From positions 21,080,001-21,144,000 of the forward strand of contig NC_043004.1 in NCBI RefSeq assembly GCF_006345805.1: a stretch of DNA of 64,000 bases, read 5' to 3'. The notes below the pieces were generated by a model. It saw only the letters and a list, made by a program, of their open reading frames with translations. It did no database searches and had not been told where the DNA came from. This document shows, piece after piece, positions 3,186-53,185 of the stretch (positions are counted from its first letter, which is position 1; the number at the start of each line of letters is the position of its first letter). The position numbers and the translations under genes were made by a program. The DNA is from Octopus sinensis (lineage: Eukaryota).

Positions 3186-3459
3186 ACATACATACTTACA
3201 TAAATAATGCATACATACATACATACATGCATAAAATATATAGATACATATGCACATACACACATATATAGTATTGTTCAATTGTAGGATTCATTAGAAT
3301 TCAGGTATTTCAGCATGCAGGACACCAGGAACAGTTGGGTATTCATCTCTATGTACATGCAGACAAGCATATTTACATACATACAGTTTTATATATATAT
3401 ATATATATTATATATATATATATATGTAAAATAATATGTGACAATTATTCGGTAGCCAA

Positions 3460-3520
3460 GATAAAACTCTGAGTTTCGGATGCCGAGGTGGAAATCCACA
3501 CCACCATCTCTTCAGTTATC
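3460..3520 (-). ncRNA. Minimal type I hammerhead ribozyme-like motif
   Basis: Minus strand reads GATAA-CTGAAGA-GATG..GTGGA/TCCAC..CATCC-GAAA-CTC A GAG-TT-TTATC: stem I GATAA/TTATC, intact CUGANGA and GAAA cores, near-palindromic stem III, GUU triplet. Confidence 0.7.
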
Positions 3521-4461
3521 ATCATCATCATCATCATCGTTTGACGTCCGTTCTCCATGCTAGCATGGGTTGGACGGTTCGACCGGAGATCTGGGAACCC
3601 AGAAGGCTGCACCAGGCTCCGGTCTTATCTGGCAATGTTTCTACAGCTGGATGCCCTTCCTAACACCAACCACTCCGTGAGTGTAGTGGGTGCTTTTTAC
3701 ATGCCACCTGCACTGGTGCCAGGCGAGGGTGGCATCGGCCATGGTCGGATTGGTGCATTTTACGTGCCACCTGCACGGAAGCCAGTCGAGGCGGCACTGG
3801 CTTTGGCCACGATTCGGATGGTGCTTTTTACGTGCCACCGACACGGAAGCCAGTCGAGGCGGCGCTGGCATCAGCCTCGATTCAGATAGTGCTTTTTACG
3901 TATCTCCAGTCCAGGGGTCCTGGCATCTGCCGGGTGCCAGTCATAGGATTGGTTCAATTTCGATTCCGATTTCACTTGCCCCAACAGGTCTTCGCAAGCA
4001 AAGGGGGGTTGGCATAGGTGCCTGTCATCGGATGAGGTTCGATATCAACTTCGCTTGCCTCAACAGGTCTTTGTGTGTCCAAGGGAGGAAAGGCATGCAT
4101 AAGTGGGCTGGACTCACTTGTCCTGCCTGGTCTTTTCACGCACAGCATATTTCCAAAGGTCTCGGTCGCTGGTCATTTCCTCAGTGAGACCTAAAGTTCG
4201 AAGGTCGTGCTTCACCACCTCGTCCCAAGTTTTCCTGGGTCTACCTCTTCCACGGGTTCCCTCCACTGCTAGGGATTGGCACTTTTTCACACACCTATCT
4301 TCATCCATTCTCACCACATGACCATACCAGCGCAATCGTCTCTCTTGCACACCACAACTGATGCTCCTTAGGTCCAACATTTCTCTCAGGGTACTAACGC
4401 TCTGTCGAGCATGCACACTGACATTACACATCCATCGGAGCATACTGGCTTCATTGGCCAG
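3517..4461 (-). mobile_element. 5'-truncated RTE LINE (ORF C-terminus, 3' UTR, (GAT)n tail)
   Basis: ORF 4114..4443 contains RRLRWYGHVVRM...GRGRPRKTWDEVVKHDL, a typical RTE C-terminus; GC-rich UTR; (GAT)n tail at 3517-3540. Confidence 0.92.
3688..3950. repeat. ~65-bp tandem repeat (about 4 units) in the RTE 3' UTR
   Basis: gtgc(t/a)tttta(c)(g/a)tgccacc..cacggaagccagtcgaggcggc recurs near 3690, 3754, 3821 and 3889. Confidence 0.8.
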
Positions 4462-4939
4462 ATATATATATATATATAACGCTCGAAATTCAGAGTCGAT
4501 AGACAGCTGACAACTGATGAAGGCTCCTTTCTCTGTTTTAACTTATCCTGTTTTCCATTTTTTTCTTGCTGTTTATGTATTTCATTCATTTTCCCCTCAT
4601 TTGTTTACATGTTTCGTGTTATTTGCACCATTGGTGATGTCTATAAGCACGTATGCATGTATATATATATATATTATTTATTATATATACATACATATAT
4701 ACATATAAATATATGTATATATATATGAAGTATTTTGCCTGGACTGATAATCCCTTTCATATATATATACATTTATTGTAAAATCTGTTTGCCAACATAA
4801 ATTGGAAGTCCTAATCAGGACGATGTTACTACCTTTTTTAGCACCTGGAAAACATCTTTTCCAGCTGGCTACTGATGCACAACTGTGTCCTTTTACCTAG
4901 AAGAAGGGAGCTAATGTCCCCACTCAGTCTTAAACAGTA

Positions 4940-4983
4940 CTTGCAGGCCATGGTTTCTGGGTTATTTTCTTCATCAGCATAGG
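4940..4983 (-). ncRNA. Degenerate hammerhead-like motif (left arm)
   Basis: Minus strand: cctatg CTGATGA agaaaataaccca GAAA ccatgg cc tgcaag. Confidence 0.5.
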
Positions 4984-5263
4984 ATAACTATTGGCTAGAA
5001 ATGGCTGCACTTGGCCATGTTCGAGGTATATACTTTTAAAGTGACACACTGTAACTGATCTTGTAAAGAGGAAAACAATTAATTTTAAATCTCTGAGTGA
5101 GAAATAAGTAGTAACAATACTACAGTGTAATTTGCCAATGTATTTCTTGCTCAGAGATTTAAAACTAATTGTTCTCCTCTTCATGAGATCAGTGACTGTG
5201 TGTAACTTTAAAAGTATATACCTTGAATAAGGCCTAGTGCTGCCATCTCTAGCCAATGGTTGT

Positions 5264-5308
5264 CCTGTGCCAATGAAGAGAAATAATCCAGAAACCATGG
5301 CCCACAGG
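5264..5308 (+). ncRNA. Degenerate hammerhead-like motif (right arm)
   Basis: cctgtg CCAATGA agagaaataatcca GAAA ccatgg cc cacagg: perfect stem I (cctgtg/cacagg) and palindromic stem III CCATGG, but the core is mutated. Confidence 0.5.
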
Positions 5309-5544
5309 TACCATTTAAGGCTGAGTGGGGACACTAGCTCCCTTCTTTGAGGTATAAGGATGCAGTTGTGTGTCAGTAGCCAGCTGGAAAATATGTTTTC
5401 CTGGGGCTAAGAAAAGCTAGTAACATTGTCCTAATCAGGACTGCCACTTTACGTTGGCAAATAGATTTTACCCTGTAGTACTGTTACTACTTACTTCTCA
5501 CTCGGAGATTTAAACTAATTGTTTTCCTCTTTATATATATATTC

Positions 5545-5575
<31 letters not shown>

Positions 5576-6196
5576 ATATATATATGTATGTATATATAAG
5601 GTATAATCAACTCTGGCAAAATATTCATAAGCTCTCTGTAGAAGAATATTCAATGGCCTAACAAATATGTCCCATGATAGATGTGAAAATCCAGGTATTC
5701 TGAACTCAACAAACTCTCACCAGGCAAATTGTAAATCCATGGTATAATTGCCAAGTGAAATTGGTATGTTGCTACTGAATGATATAGAAAATGCATACAG
5801 GTAATGCATTTTACACATTCATTGAAGGCTTACATATTTTTCTTATAAATATTTGAATGGTCTAGTTCAAAGTTCTGTAGTTGAATCTTATTAATTAAGC
5901 GATCCATAATCAATCAACTGAAACAATAGAGAACAGTGCCATACTTTTATCTACTTCAGACCCACAAAAAACTGACTATCAAAAGAAAGGAATTCGATGA
6001 AAAATGGAATTATTTGAAAGCATGGTCATCTACTTTAAGTGAGTATCTAACAGGCAACAGAGAAGGAGAGCTGTGATAACAGCAGACATCAAACAATTGT
6101 AAATTTGACCATGAAAATTGAAAACTGTTATCTTCCCCTATTGTTCAAGATTGTTGCAGACAATGGAGGACATTGTTCTGAAAATTACTACTACAT

Positions 6197-6790
6197 ACAC
6201 ATGCAGAACAAAGTAGAGAGTGAGGTAGATACATACTTGTATGTGGAATTCTAACTTATTAAATATGCCACTAGCACTAAAGTACTGAACAAGCAGAAAG
6301 GAAGGAGTAATATGTTAGGACAAAGACAAAAAAAATTGACAGATGATGATATGCTGAATTATTTAAACAGAAAGAACTCACTTTTCACTATATATTAATA
6401 TAATCAGCTTCCAGTAAATAATTCAGAGGATAATATTAATAAACAGAATTCAATAAGAAACCATAATATAATATAGTAACTGGAGGTAAACTAAAATGAT
6501 AATGCCTTAAAAAATGAGGTGGAGAAGATTAATATAAACGATAAAGAATAATTAGAAAATTTAATGGAATCTAAAGTGAAGATCTTGTAAATATAAAACA
6601 TAGAAAAGCTCAGTTAAGAAAATCCCCTAATACCTAGAAAATAGATCAGTAGAATATCTCTTAATACAGTAACTGTCATCTGCCTTCCTGGTTCGGTACT
6701 TTAGTGCCAGAAGCATATTTAATAAGTTAGAATTCAAGCTTCCTGATGCAAATGCATATCTATCTCACCCTCTATCTTGTTCTGTGTGTG
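6197..6790. repeat. Diverged inverted repeat (~105-115-bp arms, ~370-bp spacer)
   Basis: gaattctaacttattaaatatgc..cactaaagtac (6246-6283) versus gtactttagtg..gcatatttaataagttagaattc (6696-6735); similarity continues on both sides. Confidence 0.75.
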
Positions 6791-6874
6791 CCTGTGTGTG
6801 TAATATATATACATATGCACACACACACACACCCATATACATACACACACTTAGAAATATGTATATACCTACAA

Positions 6875-18983: not shown

Positions 18984-19186
18984 CAGGAGTGGCTGTAGGC
19001 GCAGGAGTGGCTGTAGGCGCAGGAGTGGCTGTGTGGTAAGTAGCTTGCTAACCAACCGCATGGTTCCGGGTTCAGTCTCACTGCGTGGCACCTTGGGCAA
19101 GTGTCTTCTGCTATAGCCCTGGGCCGACCAATGCCTTGTGAGTGGATTTGGTAGACGGAAACTGAAAGAAGCCTGTCGTATATATG

Positions 19187-19223
<37 letters not shown>

Positions 19224-19443
19224 TTGTGTGTCTGTGTTTGTTCCCCTAGCATTGCTTGACAACCGATGCTGGTGTGTTTATGTCCTCATTACTTAGCAGT
19301 TCGGCAAAAGAGACTGATAAAATAAGTACTGGGCTTACAAAAGAATAAGTCCCGGGGTCGATTTGCTCGACTTAAGGCGGTGCTCCAGCATGGCCGCAGT
19401 CAAATGACTGAAACAAGTAAAAGAGTAAAAGAGTAAAGAGAGT
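18984..19443 (+). mobile_element. SINE family A, full length, with triplicated 5' end
   Basis: tRNA-like A box (gtggctgtgtggtaag) and B box (ggttcagtc); internal (TA)n(TG)n; (aagagt)n tail. Confidence 0.92.
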
Positions 19444-20077
19444 CTAAACCAACAAATCCTATAATGTTCATTCAACTTTCTCTAAATCTATTTGTTTTGT
19501 GTTTGTCACAATCTCAATCTTTATATTTGATCCAGCATTTGGTACTATAATGCAAATTTTCTGTTGTATTAATTATAGTTGCTAATGAAGTTAAACTACA
19601 TGTCCGATGACATAAATTATTTCATGTCACACAACTTTTCAGCTGAATAATTATCATTCATTTGTACTAATCGGTATGTGCTTCTAACTTAATGCTGCAA
19701 GATACAGTGTGCAGTGACACATGTAAATTAATAATGTTTTAACATTAAGTAAATAATTATTCTTGTTAACAAGCATTTTAAGTGCAAAATGCTCAAACTT
19801 TCTCCTTTTCATTAATTAATCTAATATGCATCGGCATTAATATAATTAAAAAATAGAATTATAAAAAAGCATGTATCAAAATAAGTGTACAGATGATGGC
19901 TAAAATTTTAATACAGATTCAGAAAAGGAATAAACAGCTTAATTAAATGTATTGCCCTCTAGATTTAATTAAATTTCTATATGAATCCAAGATAGACTTT
20001 TAAATAACAATAGTTAAAAAGAAACATTTAGTTAATTATAGTAATCTCTTAATTGATAAAAAAAAAAAAAATTTAGG

Positions 20078-20508
20078 AGGCGCAGGAGTGGCTGTGTGGT
20101 AAGTAGTTTGCTAACCAACCACATGGTTCCGGGTTCAGTCCCACTGCGTGGCATCTTGGGCAAGTGTCTTCTGCTGTAGCCCCGGGCCGACCAATGCCTT
20201 GTGAGTGGATTTGGTAGACGGAAACTGAAAGAAGCCTGTCGTATATATGTATATATATGTATATGTATATGTGTATGTGTGTGTGTTTGTGTGTCTGTGT
20301 TTGTCCCCCTAGCATTGCTTGACAACCGATGCTTGTGTGTTTACGTCCCCGTCACTTAGCGGTTCGGCAAAAGAGACCGATAGAATAAGTACTGGGCTTT
20401 CAAAGAATAAGTCCCGGGGTCGATTTGCTCGACTAAAGGCGGTGCTCCAGCATGGCCACATTCAAATGACTGAAACAAGTAAAAGAGTAAAGAGTAAGAG
20501 TAAAGAGT
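20078..20508 (+). mobile_element. SINE family A, full length
   Basis: Nearly identical to 19016-19443 and 52122-52535. Confidence 0.92.
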
Positions 20509-20539
20509 TATATCAAACAAAGTTAAAATTTCTTTAATA

Positions 20540-22014: not shown

Positions 22015-22723
22015 AGTGAGAGAATATATGTTCATTCCATTTGTTTACAGCTGTTTCATAACTTTATTAGTTGTATAATAGATATTACATCACATTTGCA
22101 TGTATATAAAATGTATATATATATATACATGTGTGCGCGCGCGTGTGTATGTATACACCCATACATACAAGTGTGCTGTGAAGGAAACTTTAAACTAATC
22201 TTCAGAATGATTCACGGTAGTCCAAAATATCAATGCCACTACAGAGAGCAAGCTGACTAATTTATATTGATCTATGACTATTACTTCCTTAAAGCAAATC
22301 ATAAATTTTAACTTGCTAAGTACACATGCATTGGTTCAGCTTGCTCTCTGTTGTAGGGTTGATGTTTTGGACTACCATGAATTGTTCTGAATGTTAGTCT
22401 GTAAGTTCATTTCTCAGAACACTTGTATATATGAGTGTGCACATGCATCATCATCATCATCATCATCGTTTAACATCCGCTTTCCATGCTAGCATGGGTT
22501 GGAAGATTTGACTGAGGACTGGTGAACCAGATGGCTGCACCAGGCTCCAATCTTGATCTGGCAGAGTTTCTACAGCTGGATGCCCTTCCTAATGCCATAA
22601 CGCCATGTATATATATATTTATATATTTTATATATGCGGGAATGTTGATGTAATATCCATTATGTAACTAACAAGATTATGAAACAGCTGAAAATAAATG
22701 GAATAAACATCTATTCTCTCACT
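22015..22723. repeat. Diverged inverted repeat (~240-bp arms, ~70-bp spacer); right arm interrupted by a SINE
   Basis: 22015-22260 matches the reverse complement of 22330-22445 plus 22600-22723. Confidence 0.85.
22445..22596 (-). mobile_element. RTE-tailed SINE/LINE 3' end (family C)
   Basis: Reverse complement of 59050-59210. Confidence 0.85.
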
Positions 22724-22980: not shown

Positions 22981-23455
22981 TTGAATCAATTGTAGTGATC
23001 AATAAATATTCCTGTATCTTTCATCTTTCTTTCATCTCTCTCATTAATTGAAAATATATATAAAAAATATGCCATCATTTCAAGTGTAAAATTTTTTAAT
23101 ACAAAAATTTTTCCCCAGAAGGAGGAGGTTATAATCAATAATGGACCCTAATATCTGTCGTATATCAGGACCACCAAGCCCCCTGAAATGGACTTAGTGC
23201 TTTTAAAACTCTCCCTATCTTATTTGTGATACCGCTTTTTTTTTCTACACATTTACATTTTAATTTTTGATTGAATGTCTCTTTATGTGTAAATAGACAT
23301 ACCTAGCTTGCTTGTAGTTGCTTTACTTATCTAACACCTCATGTTCTCATCTCTTGAGCACTTCGAAGTGTTTCTATATATATAGAAAATCTGTCTCTAA
23401 AATATAAACTATATATATATATCTATAAACTATATATATATATACGTACATACAT

Positions 23456-23615
23456 GCAGGAGTGGCTGTGTGTTAAGTATCTTGCTTACCAACCACATGG
23501 TTCTGGGTTCAGTCCCACTGCATGGCACTTTGGGTAAGTGTCTTCTACTATAGCCTCAGGCTGACCAAAGCTTTGTGAGTGGATTTGGTAGTCAGAAACT
23601 GCAAGAAGCCTGTCG

Positions 23616-23666
<51 letters not shown>

Positions 23667-23870
23667 ATGTTTGTGTGTCTGTGTTTGTCTCCCCAACATC
23701 GCTTGACAACCAATGATGGTGTGTTTACGTCCCCTGTAACTTAGCAGTTCGGCAAGAGAGACCAACAGAATAAGTACTAGTCTTACAAAGAATAAGTCCT
23801 GGGGTCGATTTGCTGAACTAAAGGTGGTGCTCCAGCATGGCCACAGTCAAATGACTGAAACAAATATAAG
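23456..23870 (+). mobile_element. SINE family A
   Basis: Full-length match to the other copies. Confidence 0.9.
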
Positions 23871-24904
23871 AATAAGACTAAGAATAAGATTATATATATA
23901 TATAATATACAAAATGGGACAAGAACGCAAAACATCCGGACAGTTAGGTGATACAAAAATGGGACAACAAAACATCCAGATAGACGATACAAGGAAACAA
24001 AGACAAGTCATTCAAAGTTTTCTTTCCTCAGTGAAGCACCAGATTATCCTTGCAATTTCGGCTGATTATACTTGAGATTGCTCCAATCTGGCCAGCCCTA
24101 ACGAAAAACTACGCTAAGAGCATTAGATTCCTTGGAAGAAAACAGTGAATGTATACAAAAACAAGGATGGAAAAAAACGGACAATGTTACACAAATACAA
24201 GTACATTAAAAATAATAATAATAACAGGACATAACAACAGGTGTCATACATATATACATGCAATGGGCTTCCACACAGTTTTTATTTATTAAATTCACTC
24301 AGAAGGCATTGGTCAGCTTGGTAGAAGACACTTGCCCAATAAATTATAAAATCTGTGTTCAACACAAGTAAAACTAATTTGTTTCTCAATGTACTTAACT
24401 GTTAGTATGGAATATCTTGACTTAATTTATATCCATCACATTCTGCTGCTTGCTGGTATGCTGCAATGAATCTTTTGTGAACCACAACACTAGGTGTTAA
24501 GAGGATCTACTAACAGTGGCCTTACCAACATTTCTTTGGGAGATTATTACACAACTATGGTGTTAGTAGATAGCAACAGCAGTGAAGTGTATGAATGATA
24601 AATGGTAAGTGTTAAGTAATTCTAGTTCACAGATAGACAACGGAAGAAATAGTGGTGGTTTTGATATGTGGCTCTTGGGTTTCACACATGAAATAACGTA
24701 AGAATAAGTTCTGATATGTTGATATATTGGTCTGGTTCTTGACAACATGTTTAGTAAATGGGCATCAAAACTGTATTTATTCTTCTGTCGTTGTTGTTGG
24801 TGTTGTTGTTGTTGTTGTTGCTGTCCTTTTTGTTGTTAGTGGTAATGGTAGTGAATGAGGGATATCAAATTAACTGTAAATATATATTCATTATGCCTGC
24901 CAAA

Positions 24905-28235: not shown

Positions 28236-28361
28236 CCATATCTGCATATACTAATGAAAACACTGCATTCAATATTTCCACAAATTGTCAAAAATTCATT
28301 CCTGTTCAAGCAACAGCAAGATATTTAACCAGCTTACATATAGAACATCAATCTAAATAAT

Positions 28362-28770
28362 AGGTGTAAGAGTGGCTGTGTGGTAAGTAGCTTACTTACA
28401 AACCACATGGTTCTGGGTTTAGTTCCACTGCGTGGCATCTTGGGCAAGTATTTTCTAGTATAGCCTTGGGTCAACCAAAGTCTTGTGAGTGAAGTTGGTA
28501 GACGGAAACTGAAAGAAGCCCTTCGTATATATGTTCATATATATATATGTATGTGTGTGTATATGTTTGTGTATCTGTGTTTGTCCCCCCCGCTAACATC
28601 GACAACCGATGCTGGTGTGTTTATGTACCCGTAACTTAGCAGTTCAGCAAAAGAGACTGATAGAATAAGTACTAGGCTTACAGAGAATAAGTCCCGGGGT
28701 TAATTTGCTTGACTAAAAGGCGATGCTCCAGCATGGCCACAGTCAAATGACTGAAACAAGTAAAGAGTAA
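28362..28770 (+). mobile_element. SINE family A
   Basis: Full-length match. Confidence 0.88.
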
Positions 28771-29170
28771 GGAAGCAGATAAGCATGGTTTATCTTTCTT
28801 ATAAATCTCTACAAACATTTCTAGCTCAGTAGACGAATGGTAAGTTTTGCACTTCTGACAAACAGGCAAAGACATTTCCTGTTTCTTGTTGGGGAAGTAC
28901 AGAAAGTATATTCTCCTCCTAGCTATAGGAAATTCAATACAATTCCCTTCTATTTCTTCAATTGACATGTTTCTTTTTTGAGTTGCTGTTCTATTCCTCT
29001 TTTGACTATTTTGGTGGAATTTGTGTGGTTTTGAGCCAGTTGTGTAAAATTTGACATTTGTTTTTTTTTTCCTGTCTCAAAATGAACTTGTTGCAAATTG
29101 TGCCAAGTGTTTCTGGTCTTTGCTTCTCTTTCTTGTTAGATTTCAATTACTCTATTGTCTCGCTGTACTT

Positions 29171-36169: not shown

Positions 36170-37110
36170 AAGTTTATTTTACTTTATCTCAACAAAAAGC
36201 AATGTGGTTAATCAAAGTATGCACCTAAATTATCAGCACAATTTTGCCATTTTATCGGTTGCTTGTTTATACTGGCAGCAAAGAGTACATGAGAGCAAGA
36301 GGTGATGAAATCACGAAAGACTGTTTTTGCATCTTCTTCAGATTTGAAGTTTTTCCTTGCAAAAAGTTGTCTAATGCTTCAAAAACATGATAATCAGTTG
36401 GTGCAAGGTCTGGTGAATATGGTGGATGACAGAGTACTTCCAAGTTCAGTTGCTGTAACTTGAGTAGCGTTCTTTGTGCAACATGTGATTGAGCATTGTC
36501 GTGTAAGAGGACTGGCCTGTCTGTATTGACGAATCTCGTTTGTTTAATTGCAAGTTCTCTCATCTTTTCATCCAGTTGGTTAATGCATACATCCACTGTA
36601 ATTGACTTACCAGGTCTCATGAAACTGTAATGAATGACACCAGTGATGAATCACCAAACAGACACCATTAGCTTTTTTTGGTGAATATTCTTTCTGGATT
36701 GTGTTTTGGCACTTCGTTTCTATCCCATCACCATACTTGCTATTGGTGAAAAGAATCCATTTTTCATCACATGTAACAATACAATACAAAAATGGTTTGC
36801 TTTTATGCCATGACAGTAACAAACAGCAAGTTTAAAGACGACCTGTCATTTGATGCTTGTTCAGTTTGTGTAGTACCTACTCCACTTGTTCAGCTTCTTT
36901 ACCTTGCCGATTTGTTTCAGATGGTCCAATACAGTTGGAATTGAAACATCAAACCTTGCTGCTAACTCACACATAGTTTGAGATGTATCCACTTCCACTA
37001 CAGTTTCCAGCTCATCATTATCCACCTTGGTCTCAGGTCTACCCCGAGGCTGATTTTCAAGAGTAAAGTCACCATACCTTCCATAAGTCTTCCACCAAAC
37101 CTTAGTCACA
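36170..37110 (-). mobile_element. mariner transposase relic
   Basis: PRGRP, IVTCDEKWI, LLHDNAQSH and HPPYSPDLAPTDYHVF (DD34D) across three frames. Confidence 0.92.
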
Positions 37111-40493: not shown

Positions 40494-40901
40494 GTTGCTG
40501 GGAGTGAAGCATTGCAGGTATGTGAGGACATGGAGGCTGTGCAGGTAAGCACATGGGGGGTGGGGGTGGAGGGGCCTGCAGTGGAGGAGGTGGAAGATGT
40601 GAGGAAGATGGGTTGTGCAGGAGTTTGATAAAGGACAGAATTATGTGTGCATTTGAGGTGGGGTGTGGCTGTAAAGGTCATACCTCTATGTATGGATGAC
40701 CATGATTTTACTTAGCTTGACCTTTACAGCCACACCCCACCTCAAATGCACACATAATTCTGTCCTTTATCAAACTCCTGCACAACCCATCTTCCTCACA
40801 TCTTCCACCTCCTCCACTGCAGGCCCCTCCACCCTCCCCCATGTGCTTACCTGTACACCCTCCATGTCCTCACATACCTGCAATGCTTCACTCCCAGCAA
40901 C
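40494..40901. repeat. Near-perfect inverted duplication (~185-bp arms, 37-bp spacer)
   Basis: 40494-40680 is the reverse complement of 40718-40901, with only a few substitutions and one small indel. Confidence 0.97.
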
Positions 40902-44410: not shown

Positions 44411-45850
44411 GCATATATGTATGTAAATATTTTCTTATTGTTTGGGGTATATGTATATACCCTCATGCAAGTGAAACTGTGCTTCATTACAGCAGATAAA
44501 ATGAATGTCATTTGCTTGGCTAATTTCCAAAGAAATAGAATAGAGTATTTTTGAAAATGTCAAGAAAGGAATGAAGAATTTCGGTTTTGCTATTACCTAA
44601 TCATCCCTCACCTCTTCCTTCTCAGTAGAAATTCTGAAATGGAATGGAACAGTTACAGTAAACAATGTGAAACTCAAGGACAACAACTACAACAATAGGA
44701 ATTACAGAATTAGTGAATGGTAACATCTTCTGCTACAGTAAATTCCATTTCATGGAATCAGTGAATTATATGGGATGGGATGACAAGAATTAGATATAAT
44801 TACTCAGAGATTTTATTGATGAAATCAATAGTACATTTAGATTGGTTGTTTAATCACCATCCCATGACGACGATGATGATCCTCCCCCCTTCCCTCTTCC
44901 CCACCTCCTCCTCCGCATCATCATCATCATCAGTAGCAGCACCGGCATCACAAATACCATCATCATCATCAACATCATTAGCATCATCATCATCATTTTT
45001 GTTGTTGTTATCACAATCACCATCACCACTATCACCACCACCGCCACCATCACCAACACTACCACCATCACCAACACTACCACCACCACCAACAACAACA
45101 TCACCACCAACAACAACATCATCATCAGCAACTACCAGCATCATGACTACGACCACTACCATGACGACCACGACCGCCACCACCTGTAACAGCAGAGACT
45201 CATTGTCATTCTCTGTAGAATTGTCGCTACCACTACTAACATGGTGACCGCAATAATGGCCTACTCCACCTTCCACTCTTATTCCTTATTGTTTTTTATT
45301 TGCGCTATTATAGTTTGTTGTTATTCTCTAATTGCCTTAAAGCTTTGATCCTATTTAAGAAATCACCACCACCACCACTACTGCTATCATTGCCACCATT
45401 TCTGTTACCACCATCACTGCCACCACTACCATTGACACCACTGCTACTACAGCCATCATCATTACTACTTTGATACATCACCACCACCACCACCACCAAC
45501 ACACCACCACCACCTTTACTGCTACTACTACCACTACCACCACTATCACCACCTCTACTGTTGCTGCTACCACCACCACCACCTCTACTACTACTACAAT
45601 ACTACTACTACTACTATATCAATAAGAGAATTATTTACCTCCTACCTTATTTCCTTCACTCTTCTCTTTCCCACAGGTAAACTTGTTGCCAAACTTTACC
45701 AAACTGAAATCAATTGATATAAATAACAGATCAATAAACTGAAGGAAGATAATGATTAATTAGGGCAGCAGACATAATCAGTCGAAATCTATTGACATGG
45801 TTACCTACAACTGCAACAAGGACAACAATAATACAACCACAGCAACACTA

Positions 45851-47605
45851 CCACCGGCAAAGCTCCAGGCTCTGACGCCATCCCTGCAGAGGTGTTCAAG
45901 TCGGGAGGCCCCACCATGATCAGTCAGCTCACCAGCCTGTTCCAGTCGATGTGGGACAGGGAACAACTCCCTCAAGATTTCCGGGATGCAACAATCGTCC
46001 ACATTTATAAGCGGAAAGGAGATCGGCAGTCCTGCGACAACCACCGAGGTATTTCCCTCTTGTCCATAGCAGGCAAGATCCTGGCCCGGGTCCTGCTTGA
46101 CCGCCTTCTGGAACACTTGGAGCAAGGCCTTCTCCCTGAGAGCCAGTGTGGCTTCCGTGCGGGTCGAGGGACCACTGACATGATATTCGCCGCCCGCCAG
46201 CTCCAGGAGAAATGCATGGAGCAGCACCTTGACCTCTGCATGACCTTTGTTGACCTCACCAAGGCCTTTGATACAGTCAGTCGGGAGGGACTATGGAAGG
46301 TCATGGGAAAATTTGGTTGCCCCAGCAAATTTATTGCAATTGTCCGCCAGTTCCACGACGGAATGACAGCCAGAATCCTTGAGGACGGCGACTCATCTGA
46401 AGCCTTCCAGGTGACCAACGGAGTCAGGCAGGGCTGTGTCCTGGCCCCAACACTGTTCAGCATCATGTTCTCGGCAATGATGTCCGACGCCTTTAGGGAC
46501 TGCAAGTCCGGTATCAACATCAAGTACAGGACAGACGGAAACTTTTCAACTCCAGGAGATTGCAGGCTGTCACAAAGGTGAGGGAGACAGTCGTCAGAGA
46601 CTTTCTCTTTGCTGACGACTGCGCCCTTAATGCAATCGATGAGCAGGAGATGCAGCTCGAGATGGACAGGTTCTCATCAGCCTGTGACAACTTCGGTCTC
46701 ACCATCAGTGCAAAGAAAACCGAAGTGATGTTTCAGCCAGCCCCCGGCAAACAATACCATGAGCCTCAGATAAGGGTGAACGGACGGATCTTACGAGTGG
46801 TGGAAAACTTCACCTACCTGGGCAGCACTCTCTCCTGCAATGCCAACATAGATGCTGAAACCATCAACAGAATCTCCAAGGCAAGCAGCGCGTTTGGGAG
46901 ACTGCGAGAGAAAGTCTGGGAGCGGAGAGGAATCAGCCTCAACACCAAGCTGAAAGTCTACCGGGCAGTCGTGCTTACCACTCTACTATACGGCTGCGAG
47001 ACGTGGACTGCTTACCGAAGGCACGAGCGCCAGATAAACCACTTCCATCTCAGGTGTCTTCGGAATCTCCTTCACATCCGCTGGCAGGACAAAGTCCCAG
47101 ACACGGAAGTTCTGAAGCAGGCAGATCTCCCTAGCACCATCACAATCATGCGCAAGGACCAGCTGAGATGGGCGGGCCATGTCTCCCGCATGTCCGACAC
47201 TCGCATCCCAAAACAGCTCTTCTACGGTGAACTCGGCCAGGGCAGGCGCAAAGTCGGAGGGCAGAAAAAGCGCTACAAGGATAGTCTCAAGGTCTCTCTC
47301 AAAGACTTCTCCATCGGAACAGAGACCTGGGAGACACTTGCTGCCAACCGCTCATCCTGGCGCAGCGCAATCACCGTGGGAGCAGGGACAGCCGAGGAGG
47401 GACGGATTCGGTCAGCGGAGCAGAAACGTCAGATGCGTAAAGTCAGAGCCGCCTGCACCAGTAGCACTGCCCCTACCCACTTCTGCCCCACCTGTGGGAG
47501 GGGCTTCCTTGCCCGGATTGGCCTCACCAGCCACCTCCGGTCTCATGGCGGCAGTTCCATCAGATGATGTCAGTTGGTCATCTTCGAACCGAAGGACGAA
47601 CATTA
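45851..47605 (+). mobile_element. Young 5'-truncated RTE/BovB-like LINE
   Basis: GKAPGSD, RGISLLS, ESQCGFR, FVDLTKAFDTV, GVRQGCVLAP, LFADD, YLGS, WAGHV and a terminal C2H2 finger CPTCGRGFLARIGLTSHLRSH; 3' stem-loop, (att)n tail, possible taccacc TSD. Confidence 0.97.
45856..47567 (+). pseudogene. RTE reverse transcriptase ORF, N-terminally truncated, single frameshift
   Basis: ORFs 45892..46581 and 46560..47567 join if one A is restored at 46539-46541 (DGKLFNSRRLQ); no other lesion seen. Confidence 0.9.
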
Positions 47606-50522: not shown

Positions 50523-50803
50523 ATACTGGCATGATTTGAAAAACAGTTGTTTATAGAAGAGAAGTGGAACCCAGAAGAAGCTCTGGTGTATTTTCTTCCT
50601 CCTCTACTTCTCCAAAACAACAAATTGGTAAAAAAGTGGGGGTTTTTTTTTTGATTTTTGAGACAGTGTTTTATGACTGAGTTATCTACTTCTTGTGAAC
50701 CCTTTCGATTGCCTCTTGCAACACATAGAGAAATGATGTACTTAATCTAATCTAAAGGTATGATGTACACAGCTGCATATAGACACGATATATATATATA
50801 CAT

Positions 50804-51205
50804 AGGCATAGGAGTGGCTGTGTGGTAAGTAGATTGCTTACCAACCACATGGTTCCGGGTTGTCTCACTGCTTGGCACCTTATGCAAGTGTCTTCTACTG
50901 TAGCTTCGGCCCGACCAAAGCCTTGTGAGTGGATTTGGTAGACAGAAAGTGAAAGAAGCCCGTCATATATATGTATATATGTGTGTGTGTATATATGTTT
51001 GTGTGTTTGTGTTTGTCCCCCAACATCGCTTGACAACCGATGCTGGTGTGTTTACATCCCCGTAAGTTAGCGGTTCGGCAAAAAGAGACCAATAGAATAA
51101 GTACTAGGCTTACAAAGAATAAGTCCTGGGGTCGATTTGATTGACTAAAGGCCGTGCTCCAGCATGACCAGAGTCAAATGACTGAAACAAATAAAAGAGT
51201 AAAAG
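50804..51205 (+). mobile_element. SINE family A
   Basis: Full-length match. Confidence 0.9.
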
Positions 51206-51399
51206 TGTATACATATATACAAAGAGAAAGAGAGAGAGAGAGAAACAAAAATCTAAGGAGTATATTGATGGTCAGTGACAATAGGGCTTGTATTATTTGA
51301 CAGAAAAAGCCAAGTGAGATAGCTATGCTGAATGGAGTATCCAACATTTTAGATGGAGTCCTCCTTCAAAATAAATATGACAGACGGGGAATAGAATAC

Positions 51400-53185
51400 A
51401 GACAGCAGAGTATTTACATTATTTCTGTTTGAAAAATTGGCAGTAGCTGATGAGGAATGCAAGATGTGAGCTTCATCTGCTGACAAGAAATAGTAGGAGA
51501 GAAAAAACTGGGAGAGACAGAGAGAAGGAAAGAGAAATGATAAGAAGAAGAGACGTAGATGAGTGGAGAGAAAAACTGAAGTGAAAGGAGAACAATAGGA
51601 TAAGAACGGGATTCTGACCTCGGTAGAAGTGTAAGAGAAGAAGGAAAAACATTAATTTAAAATTGTTTGTGACATGATTCCAAGTTTCAGTGAGCAACGC
51701 TGTTCATGCTATTTCCTTAAGTATGTAGATCCATGATGAACAGAGACACTGCACATTGATAATAGAAAGGCCTATTGTGTTGATGTGGGTGGTAACAAGT
51801 TTGCCTGGCGTATATAATAGTGTGATTCAAACGTGCTCCCAAAAGTAATTGGCAAGGTGACAACCCGTTTTCTCAATCTATAATGTACCATAAAATTTGC
51901 AGATGATGCAATATATGAGCTTGGAAAATGCAAAATATAAACTTGTAAGATGCACAACTAAAATTTAGAGTAAGGTGTTACTGTGACTTTAGCCTGATGA
52001 TGGTTATAATGATTTTAATGTTGCAACATTGATGAGTGTATTTAAAAGTGCCTGGTTGTGTATGACTGGAGGCTATGGGGCTTCTAACAAGGGGGTTGCT
52101 GAGAGGCTTATTACTTTTGAAGGCGCAGGAGTGGCTGTGTGGTAAGTAGCTTGCTAACCAACCACATGGTTCCGGGTTCAGTCCCACTGCATGGCATCTT
52201 GGACAAGTGTCTTCTGCTATAGCCCCGGGCCGACCAATGCATTGTGAGTGGATTTGGTAGACGGAAACTGAAAGAAGCCTGTCGTATATATGTATATATA
52301 TGTAAGTGTGTGTGTATATGTTTGTGTGTCTGTGTTTGTCCCCCTAGCATTGCTTGACAACCGATGCTGGTGTGTTTACGTCCCCGTCACTTAGTGGTTC
52401 CGCAAAAGAGACCGATAGAATAAGTACTGGGCTTACAAAGAATAAGTCCCGGGGTCGATTTGCTCGACTAAAGGTGGTGCTCCAGCATGGCCGCAGTCAA
52501 ATGACTGAAACAAGTAAAAGAGTAAAGAGTAAGAGTATGGAGAGATCAGAATCCCTGTGAGGTAGGATTTGGAAGTTGCAAAATTAGTTTGTGTTTCGAT
52601 GGCAGGATGGATGGGTGAAAGGTGAAAGAAGGTAGAATCTGATCTGTAGTTTGTTGTGTGTAAAAAGAGTAAGAGAGTAGTGGTGTGGTTGATTGCCGGG
52701 TGGTGTGCAGGATCCACAACTAATAAAGGAACACTCGATTCAAGAAGAAATGTTGAATTTTCTCACAGCTAGAATGAAAATCAGAATCAATTCTACAGAG
52801 TCAGTGAAACCTAAAGAATAGAGAGAATAGTATGACAGATTTAGTTTGCTAGGAGGGAAAGGGAAAATAATGAAAATAAAAATGTGAGACAGTAAAATTA
52901 TTGTGGACAGAGGTTGATAGGTGGATATTGTTGCTAGCAACATAGATGTTGAGAAAACTAGTGGAGGTGTTTAGATATAGATAAGGTGTGTTTGAATGGA
53001 AAGAGTTAAGAAAAGAGATTAACCTGTTGAACTGTTGTCTGGTGAAGGTGATAGTATTGACACAGCTATCAATATAACTGCCATTTAACTTTGGGGTGGG
53101 TCCCATGAATTGAGCAAAGCTTTGCTCCTCACTGTAGCTTTCAAAAAGGCGTGCAAATCCATGGTGTGATGCCACGTACAAAGTC
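51400..53185 (-). mobile_element. Decayed Penelope-like element (RT plus GIY-YIG linker), interrupted by a SINE
   Basis: FARLFESYSEEQ..GSYIDSC (RYIDD-like)..FLNSFH..SFLNI..TSVH, then LSNPLVRS..QPGTF..CCN as in Penelope endonuclease linkers; the left boundary is uncertain. Confidence 0.75.
52122..52535 (+). mobile_element. SINE family A inserted in the Penelope relic
   Basis: Full-length and young; nearly identical to 20078-20508. Confidence 0.92.

Follow-up and report, generated by a model that had tools for sequence, protein, structure and literature searches.

A candidate non-LTR retrozyme of Octopus sinensis, apparently written into a (TA)n tract as an inverted pair by a Penelope-type enzyme

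The analysis of the window, a stretch of 64,000 nucleotides from Octopus sinensis, revealed an inverted element at 4778–5533 whose anatomy points to a Penelope-like element (PLE)-like insertion with the tested structural features of non-LTR retrozymes, and not to an autonomous PLE. With a probability of roughly two in three, we read it as a non-LTR retrozyme that would have been inserted into (TA)n by a Penelope-type endonuclease/reverse transcriptase, primed at both target ends on RNA of one donor; the enzyme, the two-ended priming and the linear template are what we infer. Within the retrozymes, small RNA parasites of a known kind, the repeat likely represents a new family, and it is likely moved by a Penelope-type reverse transcriptase.

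Architecture of the inverted element

The following features could be delimited (window positions, with strand where one applies).

4778–5142, minus: left arm, ~1.04 units in the hammerhead sense, with its 3′ end TTTTAC at 4778, the family's preferred end
5141–5533, plus: right arm, a full unit followed by 43 nt of terminal redundancy, 393 nt in all
5125–5142, plus: left-arm re-entry (with a 6-nt deletion) and 2-nt TA overlap of the arms
5472–5533, plus: 'tail' of the right arm only, 62 nt, the start of the next unit, ending in TTTA and followed by a TA tract
5367–5471, plus: 3′ module of short hairpins, common to more divergent sister repeats
5255–5315, plus: right-arm type I hammerhead-like motif, core CCAATGA...GAAA, GCC triplet, weak helix II
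4933–4992, minus: left-arm hammerhead-like motif with CTGATGA...GAAA as core and GCC at the triplet; mutations have disrupted inner helix I
4759–4777: left-hand TA tract, short and decayed
5532–5598: (TA)34 tract at the right end
4724–4756, plus: outer segment X, 33 nt, inverted partner of 5598–5629
5598–5629, minus: outer segment X′, inverted partner of 4724–4756

Pairwise alignment of the left arm (4778–5108) with the reverse complement of 5141–5471 gave 282 identical columns out of 331, the mismatches comprising 33 transitions and 14 transversions. Both arms exceed one unit of ~350 nt (period 350–351) and are arranged head to head; read in the hammerhead sense, their 5′ ends meet centrally, at the TA (5141–5142) that is common to both and forms the joining point, and both 3′ ends point to the TA tracts. 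At ~5125–5142 the left arm, with a 6-nt deletion, runs back into its own beginning, and its junction there agrees with that of the right arm in 72 of 85 columns. The head of the right arm (5141–5184) is repeated at 5492–5534 (37/44, spacing 350–351). Combined, the arms span 432 nt, equal to 1.23 units with one hammerhead, and the stretch GAAACCATGGCC is found in both, at 4946–4957 (−) and 5291–5302 (+). An earlier note, made from the letters of this DNA, had described an inverted pair of longer-than-unit arms, a left arm re-entering its own start, ~40 nt of redundancy at the right-arm terminus, one hammerhead-like motif per arm and (TA)n on both sides, and all of this was borne out by the alignments.

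The same note had seen no credible ORF, which agrees with the protein searches: six frames of the element (4778–5535) and six of the adjoining 5596–6797 contain no Pfam family, an RT or GIY-YIG ORF of an autonomous PLE included, and the one 158-aa stop-to-stop frame (4930–5406, minus) spans the inversion junction. The non-coding unit, within ~150–450 nt and of low GC (0.375 in the 2-kb bin), fits the retrozyme pattern. The element has no long direct terminal repeats and its hammerhead motif is of type I, unlike an LTR/PBS/PPT arrangement. A read-through transcript is predicted to fold into a single hairpin with 302 pairs along the arm diagonal (−476 kcal/mol), matching the hairpin of over 300 bp foreseen in the earlier note; if transcribed, the local copy would yield a double-stranded RNA of ~300 bp. 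An assembly artefact was ruled out, because the arms differ at 47 positions in a CpG-decay pattern. Neither blastn nor nhmmer detected other copies of the unit in the window; a look-alike at 6016–6027 was dropped for its weak alignment (score 26).

A multi-copy family in public sequencing runs

Twenty of the 22 public sequencing runs listed contain part of the stretch. Four of them were aligned at 80% likeness; three of these, X5, X20 and X13, come from a group of sixteen runs with shares of 0.04–0.05, whose other thirteen were left out. No RNA run containing the stretch is among the 22, which carries no information on expression; all four aligned runs are contigs of DNA or of unrecorded kind, and depth shares are over short-read contigs and do not represent copy numbers. 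The unit was fitted by 1431, 1812, 1483 and 928 contigs in the respective runs, with single positions covered by up to ~100 distinct contigs. A single-copy unit, which the earlier note had named as an outcome speaking against its reading, is thus not what is seen.

Each of the four runs has joints stepping back 347 or 351 nt, which makes the head-to-tail junction a property of the family, seen as joints and not as arrays of at least two full units (joints between opposite strands were left out, the reference containing both orientations). Contigs continuing into unlike sequence made up 17–24% of those aligned. The unit is deepest at 5367–5471, where the summed depth in three runs is ~5–8 times that of bin 5267–5293 and in X20 twice that of the bin. 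Contigs also have loose ends behind 5410 and before 5367/5369, which resemble diverged homologous sequence. We infer that this module may be the region recognised by the reverse transcriptase. Among the 32 contig pieces listed, with 6404 others beyond the listing, none runs from one end of the stretch to the other and none clearly crosses the inversion junction. Exact-motif scans returned no loci in metagenome contigs and none in viral contigs.

The hammerhead-like motif

In the right-arm motif, helix I is formed by 6+6 bp split by a 3/1 internal loop, 14 nt are inserted between CCAATGA and GAAA, and helix III is reduced to one C-G pair around a palindromic CATG loop. This layout is that of the canonical metazoan type I hammerhead as described in PMC4209133. 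A descriptor written after the motif had been seen (no more than 3 deviations in the core, at least 6 pairs in helix I and an extension of at least 5) matched the right-arm motif and 12 of 3000 shuffled units, a number that fell to 0 of 3000 when a palindromic hexamer after GAAA was added. In its loose form it gave three other matches in the window, probably by chance, and it missed the left-arm motif because helix I has decayed there. The Rfam hammerhead search gave no match in 4000–6400 at E up to 5, and no Rfam match in the window reached the gathering score; the matches obtained were to miRNA only, hairpin-driven and far under their gathering scores. Taken on its sequence features, hammerhead ancestry is strongly indicated. 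The consensus does not lack the hammerhead core outright, a loss that the earlier note would have counted against its reading, though helix II looks weak.

Both local motifs carry GCC, as had been noted before, against a family majority of GTC: T accounts for 78–92% of the depth at 5301 on the right arm, and at 4947 on the left arm the majority letter, again giving GTC, reaches 90–100%. The family majority further has G at 5272 (80–89% of depth), A in loop 1 at 5262 (81–89%) and the C5257/G5313 pair in outer helix I (70–79%). The retrozyme reading of the earlier note is supported in these parts: the ~350-nt unit is multi-copy, ORF-less and joined head to tail, and its hammerhead-like motif is of type I with a majority GTC.

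Helix II is without the G10.1–C11.1 pair in both arms, and no majority change repairing it is found among the 40 of 137 difference rows listed. At 5271–5272 the arms read TG and CA, a swap pattern that points towards an ancestral CG; core position 4 is therefore probably C, judging from the swap at 5271/4976 and from one contig string. According to PMC3088659, U4C lowers activity in vitro and still allows viroid infectivity, and changes at 15.1/16.1 cost at least tenfold of the activity. As a ribozyme, the local copy has likely lost its activity. A hammerhead with an I15.1–C16.1 pair is active; the candidate explanation of GCC as a family trait activated by A-to-I editing was discarded, the family majority being T.

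Circular folds were significantly stable only in the right arm, with z −3.4 in sense and −2.8 in antisense, and not in the left arm (z −1.0 and −0.5), against 60 shuffles each. Separately, an upstream pyrimidine tract (5168–5184) can pair with 5273–5286, on the core/helix II side of the hammerhead, and so can the left-arm equivalents, for which −7.4 kcal/mol is predicted. Such pairing could hold the ribozyme off or account for the odd helix II.

3′ ends, tail and TA targets

Contigs departing from the unit after 5471 (37, 53, 38 and 23 in the four runs) enter TA-rich DNA with low agreement (0.46–0.49), and 80, 83, 83 and 64 contigs continue through 5472 with the letter of the majority. The preferred 3′ end of the family, TTTTAC, is exactly the left-arm end at 4778. 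It lies ~170 nt 3′ of the predicted cleavage site and so differs from the ribozyme cut. Beyond this end the right arm continues for 62 nt and stops in TTTA at 5533. TTTA bounds the tail on either side, and the locus displays two ends 62 nt apart, the first of them common in the family. At the right-arm tail end, one loose-end consensus in X5 (23 contigs) becomes AT-rich, which hints at a second family-wide end. Together with the TA tracts on both sides of the element, the TA-rich loose ends conform to an AT-rich or microsatellite target.

A second, unrelated type I hammerhead was observed at 3426–3520 (−), with a strict-core motif at 3460–3520 and a TTTTAC end directly before (AT)n. It consists of CTGAAGA, a 4-bp helix II base, GAAAC, a palindromic helix III, GTT and a 5-bp helix I, its 5′ side is cut by a SINE-like repeat, and it was the sole match of the strict scan in the window; it is likely a remnant of a PLE end. 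TTTTAC stands at most 16 nt upstream of the start of a TA tract in 2 of 128 cases (background 0.65% per site), and both of these tracts belong to hammerhead elements, which leaves only one case beyond the element studied.

A common template and subsequent decay

Among the 40 of 137 difference rows listed, the arms share five departures from the family majority, three of them outside CpG-type sites (5176/5071, 5301/4947 and 5345/4903). If the arms had been drawn independently, the chance of such sharing would be ~0.004. The letter at 5176 is also carried by the tail; this site lies within a T/C run and is the least secure of the shared variants. Because these rare variants are common to both, the arms appear to derive from one template.

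Of the eight double mismatches at neighbouring positions, seven are TG/CA swaps, against an expectation of 0.13. The arms disagree at 10 CpG-type sites, and of the 20 copies of these no more than 3 still read CG, so the arms split with their CpGs intact and have decayed since. The divergence per arm (Jukes–Cantor) is 0.05–0.08 substitutions per site, and the locus is a genomic copy that is old and decayed.

The earlier note had taken the element for cDNA of a circular or multimeric RNA. The longer-than-unit template stands. A circle is not required: one partial-tandem donor, read through into a linear RNA, would suffice, given that the arms total 432 nt with one hammerhead. A self-cleaved circle seems the less likely template because the donor carried GCC. 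The suggestion that a Penelope reverse transcriptase made the copy is in keeping with an insertion anatomy that matches PLEs; no partner PLE was found in the twelve frames covering the element and the adjoining 5596–6797.

Proposed insertion mechanism

A Penelope-type endonuclease/reverse transcriptase would write the ORF-less tandem repeat of ~350 nt into a (TA)n tract, priming from both cut target ends on the longer-than-unit RNA of one donor. The left cDNA would start at the main site of the family, TTTTAC, and run for ~363 nt, and the right cDNA would start 62 nt further 3′, at the tail site, and run for 393 nt; the two would meet over the 2-nt TA overlap, leaving head-to-head arms. With GCC already at the cleavage triplet of the donor, the template would probably be a linear RNA that had not been cleaved and measured at least 1.23 units, and not a self-cleaved circle. 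Both arms would then have decayed in place, losing most of their CpGs.

Several of these steps have counterparts in PLEs. Their insertions are described as partial tandems with an adjacent inverted, 5′-truncated copy, mostly head to head (PMC8557442, PMC3846280), with a tail of 30–40 bp, often at one end only (PMC3846280, PMC8557442, PMC11167929), and with (TA)n targets in some clades (PMC8557442, PMC3846280). A PLE protein is reported in PMC11167929 to cleave and extend both target strands in AT-rich DNA and to start at two internal RNA sites whose spacing equals the tail; hammerhead cleavage was not required in vitro.

A more specific version, which we hold only tentatively, is that one PLE complex primes both target strands at two UUUA(C) sites on uncleaved donor RNA and the cDNAs are joined head to head. 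The family would have multiplied in spite of an impaired ribozyme, with C at position 4 and a weak helix II, because it needs nothing but the 3′ hairpin module; other hammerhead elements of this genome would share the TTTTAC/(TA)n end. If this were true, the spread of retrozymes would be independent of circles.

Alternative readings of the locus

Outside the TA tracts, 4724–4756 and 5598–5629 form a 33-nt inverted match (26/33, score 35), a score reached by 1 of 2780 window tiles, the tiles including the query's own place; the earlier note had not recorded this match. TA is present at both outer ends of X/X′, and any target-site duplication would be masked inside the TA tracts. Two-ended priming leaves this match unexplained, unless X-(TA)n-X′ represents an older target. 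It would be accounted for if a 1.23-unit retrozyme had been inserted once and the locus soon duplicated by DNA fold-back or by self-primed synthesis into the flank, copying the TA tract and X, with the left arm later losing its tail. The divergence of X/X′ is compatible with that of the arms, the variants common to both arms are explained as well, TTTA at both tail ends offers a possible deletion microhomology, and other long palindromes are present in the window (22015–22723 and 40494–40901); self-priming has also been proposed for PLE inverted junctions (PMC3846280). However, the left arm stops exactly at the preferred end of the family, which a random deletion need not do, the intact CpGs at the arm split place the duplication close to the insertion in time, and the passage of the left arm across the unit junction would demand extra template jumps if the right arm had simply been copied. 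We consider such a duplication unlikely.

A still less probable reading is that the unit is the non-coding end (pLTR) of an autonomous PLE, 5′-truncated and inverted, with no independent retrozyme. The anatomy is the same as that of PLE ends, Schistosoma PLEs are reported with opposite-strand hammerhead pairs 100–700 bp apart (PMC4209133), and the contigs that run on into unlike sequence (17–24%) speak for it. Against it, the tail is the start of the same 350-nt unit and not an ORF start, which makes a bare pLTR unlikely; head-to-tail joints of 347–351 nt occur in 4/4 runs, the unit has no Pfam match, and helix I of 6+6 bp with an internal loop belongs to the canonical retrozyme type and not to the minimal PLE type (PMC4209133).

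A transposase-mobilised, MITE-like fold-back DNA element with X/X′ as 33-nt terminal inverted repeats and a TA target duplication is very improbable: X/X′ are inverted with TA at start and end, and the depth of X is above single-copy in three of the four runs (bin 4727–4753 summing to 124, 960, 965 and 18, compared with ~7, 35, 55 and 9 for one contig), but at most 15 of 1431, 13 of 1812, 9 of 1483 and 7 of 928 contigs cross either end of the stretch, family copies pass into varied TA-rich DNA where they leave the unit, MITEs are characterised neither by hammerheads nor by head-to-tail permutation, and X-(TA)n-X′ would be at most an older small element serving as target. The family ends are heterogeneous and TA-rich, without the fixed terminal inverted repeats of a MITE; fixed MITE-like ends, which the earlier note had held to be incompatible with its proposal, are thus not seen outright, though the family has a preferred 3′ end.

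Comparison with known elements

Metazoan non-LTR retrozymes, with mussel (mollusc) repeats of ~350–390 bp, were described by Cervera and de la Pena in 2020 (PMC7229834), and the accounts given there share with the present unit the non-coding head-to-tail organisation of ~350 nt, the low GC and a type I hammerhead with a 6-bp helix I and an internal loop; the one-pair helix III with a palindromic tetraloop is the same as in HHR_Amex1 of axolotl (PMC7229834). In contrast to these retrozymes, the element has dispersed arms of 1.0–1.1 units in inverted arrangement, a weak helix II and a probable C at position 4. The main text of PMC7229834 has no mention of 'inverted', 'microsatellite' or 'cephalopod'. 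Plant LTR retrozymes carry type III hammerheads with LTR/PBS/PPT, whereas the unit is of type I and without these.

With endonuclease-bearing PLEs, as far as these are described in the sources above, the element shares the head-to-head inverted 5′ copy, the partial tandem, the one-arm tail, the AT-rich/(TA)n target and the presence of a hammerhead in a terminal repeat. It differs from them in having no RT/GIY-YIG ORF, a whole element of 350 nt and a canonical-type hammerhead in place of a minimal one, and its tail of 62 nt is longer than the 30–40 nt given for PLEs. Schistosoma mansoni PLEs (Cervera and de la Pena 2014, PMC4209133) likewise have opposite-strand hammerheads a few hundred bases apart; those reported are minimal motifs of truncated PLEs, whereas a self-contained tandem unit is present here.

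Retrozymes have been presented as non-autonomous PLE derivatives by Li, Clavereau and Pollet (2026, bioRxiv 10.64898/2026.07.22.740005), with the same conclusion as ours on origin and mobiliser. In the accessible parts of that preprint, monomers and short arrays are common and 1 of 9 tested elements cleaved in vitro; its basis is co-occurrence and pLTR homology, mostly in vertebrates, and the present locus adds junction anatomy, the available text containing no mention of tails, target sites or molluscs. Both the mobiliser of animal retrozymes and the circle as template are argued there and in PMC7229834 from co-occurrence and homology. A retrozyme copy that bears the signature of PLE junctions, with an inverted 5′ copy, a tail on one side and a TA target, is independent and countable evidence, and the GCC-bearing donor argues that self-cleavage was unnecessary for this insertion. 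The locus itself, being an old dead copy, has a modest mechanistic value.

No paper describing a cephalopod retrozyme was among those listed by the literature searches, and repeat libraries or supplements could already contain the family. A 2026 repeat annotation of Octopus vulgaris (PMC13282606) reports abundant Penelope-like elements, and neither 'hammerhead' nor 'ribozyme' occurs in its text and supplement.

Other features of the window

Two further palindromes are seen in the window. The one at 40494–40901 is near-perfect (408 nt, 92% self-complementary) and has no other copy in the window. The other, at 22015–22723, is old, with outer arms 84% and inner arms 70% alike; one arm contains a TA tract, and 22446–22597 is a SINE-like insertion. 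An inverted pair of ~120 nt, ~76% alike, is formed by 6183–6305 and 6680–6804, which enclose an AT-rich, ORF-like stretch without a Pfam match.

The region at 45832–47567 (+) encodes a LINE reverse transcriptase in two long frames separated by one frameshift, with relatives 70–80% identical in marine animal data; a protein search with the frame at 46497–47564 found animal relatives including gastropods, fish, frog, turtle, lancelet and tapeworm. A mariner-type DDE transposase fragment is placed at 36267–36650 (−). An abundant dispersed repeat of ~430 nt, its copies 72–94% alike (19012–19440, 20072–20513, 23434–23895, 28337–28773, 50776–51209, 52115–52537 and others), is probably a SINE family, and the nearby SINEs presumably resemble octopus SINEs.
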